Part shown: positions 49,820 to 51,380 of the stretch, piece after piece
How positions within the stretch are numbered: position 1 is the stretch's first letter
Layout of the letters: each line of letters opens with the position of its first letter
NCBI RefSeq assembly: GCF_057098645.1
Contig: NZ_CM169472.1
Strand: one strand, 5' to 3'
DNA: 64,000 nt
Program-made: the position numbers and the translations under genes
Notes under the pieces: model-generated
What the model saw: the letters and a program-made list of their open reading frames with translations, nothing else
Database searches by the model: none
What the model was told of the DNA's origin: nothing

Positions 49820-49918
49820 CATTTGATTAGACTGGCCCCCTGAATCTCCAGACAACCAGTATCACTTAAATAAGTGATAGTCTTAATACTAGTTTTTAGA
49901 CTAGTCATTGGAGAACAG

Positions 49919-50284
49919 ATGATTGATGTCTTAGGGCCGGAGAAACGCAGACGGCGTACCACACAGGAAAAGATCGCAATTGTTCAGCAGAGCTTTGAAC
50001 CGGGGATGACGGTCTCCCTCGTTGCCCGGCAACATGGTGTAGCAGCCAGCCAGTTATTTCTCTGGCGTAAGCAATACCAGGAAGGAAGTCTTACTGCTGT
50101 GGCCGCCGGAGAACAGGTTGTTCCTGCCTCTGAACTTGCTGCCGCCATGAAGCAGATTAAAGAACTCCAGCGCCTGCTCGGCAAGAAAACGATGGAAAAT
50201 GAACTCCTCAAAGAAGCCGTTGAATATGGACGGGCAAAAAAGTGGATAGCGCACGCGCCCTTATTGCCCGGGGATGGGGAGTAA
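49919..50284 (+). CDS. insC: IS2 OrfA (InsC) HTH transposase regulator
   Basis: 121 aa from [25 protein letters not shown]. Confidence 0.93.
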
Positions 50285-51147
50285 GCTTAGTCAGCCGTTG
50301 TCTCCGGGTGTCGCGTGCGCAGTTGCACGTCATTCTCAGACGAACCGATGACTGGATGGATGGCCGCCGCAGTCGTCACACTGATGATACGGATGTGCTT
50401 CTCCGTATACACCATGTTATCGGAGAGCTGCCCACGTATGGTTATCGTCGGGTATGGGCGCTGCTTCGCAGACAGGCAGAACTTGATGGTATGCCTGCGA
50501 TCAATGCCAAACGTGTTTACCGGATCATGCGCCAGAATGCGCTGTTGCTTGAGCGAAAACCTGCTGTACCGCCATCGAAACGGGCACATACAGGCAGAGT
50601 GGCCGTGAAAGAAAGCAATCAGCGATGGTGCTCTGACGGGTTCGAGTTCTGCTGTGATAACGGAGAGAGACTGCGTGTCACGTTCGCGCTGGACTGCTGT
50701 GATCGTGAGGCACTGCACTGGGCGGTGACTACCGGCGGCTTCAACAGTGAAACAGTACAGGACGTCATGCTGGGAGCGGTGGAACGCCGCTTCGGCAACG
50801 ATCTTCCGTCGTCTCCAGTGGAGTGGCTGACGGATAATGGTTCATGCTACCGGGCTAATGAAACACGCCAGTTCGCCCGGATGTTGGGACTTGAACCGAA
50901 GAACACGGCGGTGCGGAGTCCGGAGAGTAACGGAATAGCAGAGAGCTTCGTGAAAACGATAAAGCGTGACTACATCAGTATCATGCCCAAACCAGACGGG
51001 TTAACGGCAGCAAAGAACCTTGCAGAGGCGTTCGAGCATTATAACGAATGGCATCCGCATAGTGCGCTGGGTTATCGCTCGCCACGGGAATATCTGCGGC
51101 AGCGGGCTTGTAATGGGTTAAGTGATAACAGATGTCTGGAAATATAG
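50242..51147 (+). CDS. insD: IS2 OrfB (InsD) DDE transposase catalytic domain, expressed as InsCD by -1 frameshift
   Basis: 301-aa ORF in the -1 frame overlapping insC; DDE integrase-like motifs. Confidence 0.93.
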
Positions 51148-51380
51148 GGGCAAATCCATTGATGCAATATTTTGTCAGCGCAAACGGTTTACTTGAATTA
51201 TAAGTCAAAATATATGCATTTTTATTTGATGTGATTCTGCAGGCGACTGTCGTTCGGTATCAATAATTGCAGACATTTCCTGCTTTTTTCTTTTTCACTT
51301 TCACGCAATCAGATATGCATTTTATTCCATTCATCCGACTTATAGGGCGGAGTGTGAAAACGAACGGCTAACACTATTGC

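Follow-up and report, generated by a model that had tools for sequence, protein, structure and literature searches.

The outward-facing -35 sequence of IS3-family elements, IS2 included, sits in the right terminal inverted repeat (IRR) and is the source of the fusion promoters that these elements form, which for IS2 are known at ampC, acrEF and neoR (PMC9330008). In the ampC case (Jaurin & Normark 1983, as summarised in PMC9330008) the -35 is supplied by the IS and lies 17 bp from the resident -10. The pyrBI operon of Escherichia coli is controlled in two ways. UTP-dependent reiterative transcription takes place at the AATTTG start region (bioRxiv 10.1101/732214; PMC6245113), and attenuation requires pyrL to be translated in step with transcription (PMC5021804). 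The window analysed here is a stretch of 64,000 nucleotides of E. coli DNA from contig NZ_CM169472.1, and it was found to carry a complete IS2 in the spacer between pyrL and yjgH, with the last base of the element at position -45 of P2, the main pyrBI promoter. The reading that we very much favour is that this is an intact IS2 that arrived recently by simple insertion at -45, that the pyrBI controls have been kept and that basal transcription would be unchanged or modestly changed, a decrease being the more likely direction.

Analysis of the IS2 (49,828 bp–51,158 bp, plus strand) revealed it to be 1331 bp long, with its left terminal inverted repeat (IRL) at the low coordinate and 99.70% nucleotide identity to IS2A of E. 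coli MG1655, from which it differed at 4 of 1331 positions (IS positions 32, 274, 606 and 900). Annotated full-length IS2 copies in many E. coli genomes showed 99.9–100% identity to it, with a copy in FDAARGOS_943 at 100%. The IRL (49,828 bp–49,869 bp, plus strand), which begins with TAGACTGGCCCCC, abuts the pyrBI promoter, and the IRR (51,117 bp–51,158 bp, plus strand), which ends with GGGGCAAATCCA, faces yjgH. An alignment of the IRL with the IRR showed 31 matches over approximately 42 bp with one gap. The repeats are therefore imperfect, and with the IRL opening on TAGACTGG and the IRR closing on CAAATCCA they agreed with the organisation of the IS2 group, whose members are of approximately 1.3 kb and have imperfect repeats of approximately 40 bp ending in CA-3′.

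Two overlapping ORFs were found in the element, with orfB in the -1 frame. The first of these, insC (49,919 bp–50,284 bp, plus strand), starts at an ATG at 49,919 bp and encodes OrfA, a helix-turn-helix (HTH) DNA-binding protein and repressor of 121 amino acids; insD (50,242 bp–51,147 bp, plus strand) has a GTG start and encodes OrfB, a protein of 301 amino acids that contains the DDE (rve) catalytic domain. The slippery sequence A AAA AAG, the site of the programmed -1 frameshift from insC to insD, was present at 50,236 bp–50,242 bp (plus strand) within the codons GCA AAA AAG of the insC frame, and a -1 shift at this site is predicted to yield an OrfAB fusion of 409 amino acids. InsC and InsD showed 100% amino acid identity to InsC1 and InsD1 of MG1655 respectively. 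The OrfAB fusion matched the NCBIfam models for IS2 TnpB (723.9 bits, cutoff 597), IS2 TnpA, the repressor (238.8 bits, cutoff 229), and IS3-family transposase (279.5 bits, cutoff 160), and contained the Pfam domains HTH_Tnp_1, HTH_21, rve and rve_3; the HTH and DDE domains of the IS2 group were thus present, with scores above the curated family cutoffs. No second IS2 end was found within the whole window. The preliminary description of this DNA had reported intact insC and insD genes with a frameshift site, and this held, the proteins being identical to those of K-12 and the motif lying in the right frame. The copy is presumably transposition-competent.

The IS2 is flanked by two direct copies of TTGAT, the left at 49,823 bp–49,827 bp and the right, beyond the IRR, at 51,159 bp–51,163 bp. 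Deletion in silico of the IS2 and one TTGAT left 865 bp that corresponded exactly to the pyrL-yjgH spacer of E. coli O145:H28 strain RM13514. TTGAT occurs once at the empty site of RM13514, so the repeat is a 5-bp target-site duplication of the kind made by the IS2 group. This exact reconstruction of the empty site is far stronger evidence for simple insertion than a random 5-bp match, expected at approximately 1/1024, would be, and it bears out the earlier proposal that a complete 1331-bp IS2 with a direct TTGAT repeat reflects a bona fide transposition. The DNA between 40,000 bp and 49,827 bp of the window was essentially identical to that of E. coli O145:H28 genomes. Across its whole 64 kb the window was collinear with RM13514. 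Over 62.7 kb the two differed at 13 single bases, and structurally by nothing but the IS2 plus its duplication. As the IS2 is the lone structural change in an otherwise collinear region, this was a plain, simple transposition that rearranged nothing else; the strain itself is a very near relative of the O145:H28 (Shiga-toxin E. coli) lineage. The element moved into the pyrL-yjgH spacer recently.

Alignment of the window with RM13514 also showed that three of the 13 single-base differences cluster in tamB within 323 bp (23,667 bp, 23,684 bp and 23,989 bp); the other ten were scattered. An IS200/IS605-type element, between approximately 3100 bp and 4800 bp of the window, interrupts a TetR/AcrR-family regulator gene located between yjfZ and ytfB. 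This element contains a TnpB/InsQ ORF of 402 amino acids (3550 bp–4758 bp) and a tnpA that is annotated as frameshifted in RM13514; as RM13514 shares this element, it predates the IS2 insertion. Tandem units of approximately 98 bp that match Rfam naRNA4 (REP/BIME-type repeats) were found between holC and pepA (62,655 bp–62,950 bp), and single naRNA4-type copies were found in other intergenic spacers at 27,735 bp–27,813 bp, 33,976 bp–34,053 bp and 37,668 bp–37,738 bp. Additionally, Rfam matches were obtained to an Mg2+-responsive leader (Magnesium-II, 125.8 bits) at 44,648 bp–44,763 bp, upstream of mgtA at the place annotated as mgtL in RM13514, a commonplace and conserved element; to the antisense RNA family Ysr276 (180 bits) at 63,715 bp–63,909 bp (plus strand), inside or opposite pepA; and to the ES239 sRNA (157 bits) at 13,371 bp–13,493 bp (plus strand), adjoining the start of cpdB. 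The Rfam scan of the region 49,600 bp–51,400 bp gave no match.

Neither junction of the IS2, with GAAGCGGTGCAAGCATTTGATTAGACTGGCCCCCTGAATC as the junction k-mer of the pyrL-yjgH insertion, occurred in the 5,426 complete E. coli genomes searched in RefSeq, among them MG1655, and the left junction was likewise absent from the GTDB representative genomes and from the JGI metagenome contigs. A 400-bp empty-site probe, counted at a coverage of at least 80%, revealed the uninterrupted site in 4,819 of the 5,426 genomes, including all 38 records with at least 99% identity. Most of the others carry lineage-specific DNA from approximately 40 bp past the insertion point, rather than an insertion. The preliminary description did not expect an IS2 at this position in MG1655, where the site is indeed empty, and it had proposed that reference genomes be compared for the same IS2; as that comparison found no carrier among the 5,426 complete E. 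coli genomes, the insertion is specific to, and within the collections searched private to, this strain. A literature search for pyrBI and IS2 together returned incidental co-occurrence only, and one for O145 H28 and IS2 together returned no match. This is a known element at a new insertion site, an ordinary insertion polymorphism that would not surprise a specialist.

Two apparent matches to the left junction proved to be a single strain, 2018-02-2CC, deposited twice, and were due to another IS2-like insertion further off. Among the genomes with lineage-specific DNA near the insertion point is strain N50 (NZ_CM165889.1), which diverges already upstream of the -10. This strain, a CSF isolate in which the match to the empty site ends near the -10, was considered as a possible second case of an IS at this promoter and was rejected, as it has divergent upstream DNA and no IS there. 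N50 lacks yjgH-bdcA-bdcR and the next hypothetical gene, such that tabA adjoins pyrL, and the sequence preceding its pyrBI -10, the -35 region included, is unlike the common allele (positions 3610 bp–3910 bp of the retrieved locus). It also has an extra transposase gene between mgtA and ridA.

The genes on either side of the insertion are encoded on the minus strand. Reading along this strand, the end of the IS2 at 49,828 bp is followed by ATCAAATG, which is 8 bp long and of which five nucleotides are the duplication, then by the -35 hexamer of P2, CTTGCA (49,814 bp–49,819 bp), 17 bp and the -10 hexamer TATAAT (49,791 bp–49,796 bp). An equally possible reading of the -35 is TTGCAC (49,813 bp–49,818 bp) with a spacer of 16 bp; on the two readings the IS2 end is 8–9 bp upstream of the retained native -35. 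After TATAAT come GCCGGAC (7 bp), the initially transcribed AATTTG (49,778 bp–49,783 bp, with +1 at 49,783 bp), which is the UTP-sensitive site of reiterative transcription, and 12 bases leading to the ATG of pyrL at 49,765 bp; the arrangement of TATAAT and then AATTTG thus runs from 49,796 bp to 49,778 bp. The pyrL leader peptide gene (49,631 bp–49,765 bp), annotated as such in the identical DNA of RM13514, is an ORF of 44 codons that extends into a rho-independent attenuator immediately ahead of pyrB. In a sequence scan this attenuator appeared as a G+C-rich hairpin followed by a T-run (49,648 bp–49,677 bp), and a hairpin upstream of it was also present. Both pyrB (48,692 bp–49,627 bp) and pyrI (48,218 bp–48,679 bp) are present. 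On the other side of the element yjgH, which encodes a RidA-family protein (51,381 bp–51,776 bp), is intact, with its stop codon 218 bp from the IS2. The insCD genes are transcribed away from pyrL, so that it is the IRL that faces pyrL.

The order given in the preliminary description (IS2 end, 8 bp, cttgca, 17 bp, tataat, pyrL and attenuator) therefore matches the sequence. The -35, the -10, AATTTG, pyrL and the attenuator are all unchanged, and the region from pyrL through the attenuator to pyrB and pyrI is identical to that of RM13514. Both UTP-sensing controls reside in sequence downstream of the -10 that the insertion left alone, so the regulatory logic should persist, with reiterative transcription and attenuation still governing pyrBI. 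An altered pyrimidine-responsive control, which had been raised at the outset, is unlikely, as both controls are base-identical to those of the uninterrupted relative.

What the insertion did change lies upstream of -45. All of the native DNA beyond this point has been shifted 1336 bp from P2, in line with the earlier statement that native DNA beyond the -35 has been replaced by IS2 sequence. Between -57 and -47 the A/T-rich GACAAAATATT has given way to GGGGGCCAGTC from the G+C-rich IRL, and the match to the UP-element consensus falls, on a crude score, from 8/14 to 2/14. A candidate upstream promoter, identified by consensus match only (ATAAAA-17-TATAAT, 51,197 bp–51,231 bp, minus strand), precedes P2 by 70 bp where the site is uninterrupted; here it has ended up on the far side of the IS2. 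Transcription from the yjgH side must now cross 1.3 kb of IS2 in antisense to reach pyrL. It could be argued from these changes that the loss of a UP-like A/T tract and of an upstream promoter, together with a block to read-through, substantially lowers pyrBI expression, the more so as the -35 of P2 is weak (3/6) and upstream contacts might matter; the strain would then be partly pyrimidine-limited or have an altered carbamoyl-phosphate flux. Such a substantial reduction is unlikely in our view. The candidate at 51,231 bp to 51,197 bp may be the published minor pyrBI promoter P1, which Liu et al. 1993 reportedly found to be physiologically insignificant, with P2 alone accounting for physiological pyrBI expression. 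The pyrBI promoter is not known to have a UP element or to depend on one, and loss of the A/T tract may therefore be of no consequence to the operon. Additionally, the DNA of N50 is naturally quite different upstream of the -10, suggesting that the region tolerates change. Less probable again, and distinctly doubtful, is the proposal that the IS2 is a selected cis-regulatory mutation and not a neutral passenger, resetting the basal level of aspartate transcarbamoylase. Here the A/T-rich native sequence and the upstream promoter would have been exchanged for the InsC-bound, G+C-rich IRL next to a divergent IS2 promoter, and carbamoyl phosphate would be divided differently between the pyrimidine and arginine pathways in this strain of a Shiga-toxin lineage.

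Activation or deregulation of pyrBI by an outward or hybrid promoter of the IS2, as in the IS2-ampC case, would have precedents in the fusion promoters at ampC, acrEF and neoR (PMC9330008), and a relaxed scan of the left end of the element did find one weak outward match, TTAAGA-17-GATACT (8/12), which could add some transcription. However, the standard promoter scan of the IS2 left end revealed no outward promoter and there was none of consensus grade in the IRL end; with only the weak 8/12 match, an outward promoter in the left end was rejected as a likely mechanism. The geometry also differs from that of a fusion promoter, in which the end carrying the outward -35, the IRR, faces the gene and the -35 of the IS replaces the native one at 16–18 bp from the resident -10. 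Here the IRL faces pyrL, the IS end is at -45, and the spacer of 17 or 16 bp is native. As the IRL points towards pyrL and the native -35 is retained, no fusion promoter forms, and the suggestion in the preliminary description that the IS2 end may create or modulate a promoter is unsupported here. Any transcript started in the IS2 would, moreover, still meet the pyrL attenuator. We regard activation as very improbable. It is harder still to credit that the assembler misplaced a repeat copy and that the IS2 seen here is an artefact. IS2 is multicopy in most E. coli and the junction was present in no other genome searched, both of which would fit such an error, but a precise 5-bp duplication, exact termini and an empty site that can be rebuilt without a mismatch are what real transposition leaves behind, and not a mis-join.

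The favoured reading, a recent simple insertion that leaves the pyrBI controls in place, can be set out as follows. IS2 would have made a simple insertion, with duplication of TTGAT, in the pyrL-yjgH spacer of an E. coli of the O145:H28 lineage, and the IRL would have landed at -45 of P2, sparing the core promoter, AATTTG, pyrL and the attenuator. Changes in cis would be restricted to the DNA upstream of -45, where the A/T tract was exchanged for G+C-rich IRL sequence, and the candidate minor upstream promoter, together with any read-through from yjgH, would be cut off from pyrL by 1.3 kb of antisense IS2. The outcome would be a basal pyrBI transcription that is the same or modestly changed, with a decrease more likely. 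The upstream changes could somewhat lower basal promoter strength, and a quantitative change in the basal strength of P2 is possible; P2 could also be affected, in a manner that is unpredictable from sequence, by binding of InsC to the IRL or by transcription running divergently from the IS2 promoter. Judging from the sequence, we infer that any effect on pyrBI expression, in either direction, is probably small, and no large effect is expected as every known control element is intact.

The insertion matters little beyond strain typing, for which it offers a clean marker private to this isolate of the O145:H28 lineage, and it shows present or recent IS2 activity there. If the level of aspartate transcarbamoylase were found to be changed, it would be one more instance of promoter remodelling mediated by an IS, and would be a hint that P2 draws part of its strength from sequence beyond -45.

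Compared with the described systems, the element itself is closest to K-12 IS2A (insC1/insD1, MG1655 381,260 bp–382,590 bp), with which it shares the length of 1331 bp, the proteins, the frameshift site, the imperfect repeats and the 5-bp target duplication; the two differ by the 4 nucleotide substitutions and by location, the present pyrL-yjgH site being occupied in 0 of 5,426 complete genomes. With regard to position, the nearest case is that of 2018-02-2CC (NZ_AP021896.1), which also has a 1331-bp IS2-type element in the pyrL-yjgH neighbourhood (positions 3439 bp–4769 bp of the retrieved locus), with the IRL toward pyrL and a 5-bp duplication. That element nevertheless represents an independent event, as its distance from pyrL is 238 bp greater than that of the IS2 of the window, its target duplication reads GCGCG, yjgH is truncated by it at the 3′-end and the element shows only 95.7% identity to the window IS2. 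Two separate IS2-type insertions, in the window strain and in 2018-02-2CC, thus occur in the same short neighbourhood among approximately 5,400 genomes. The ampC fusion promoter resembles the pyrBI locus in that an IS2 end is found near a resident sigma-70 promoter; at pyrBI, in contrast, this end is at -45, the native -35 has been kept, and it is the IRL, rather than the -35-bearing IRR, that is directed toward the gene.
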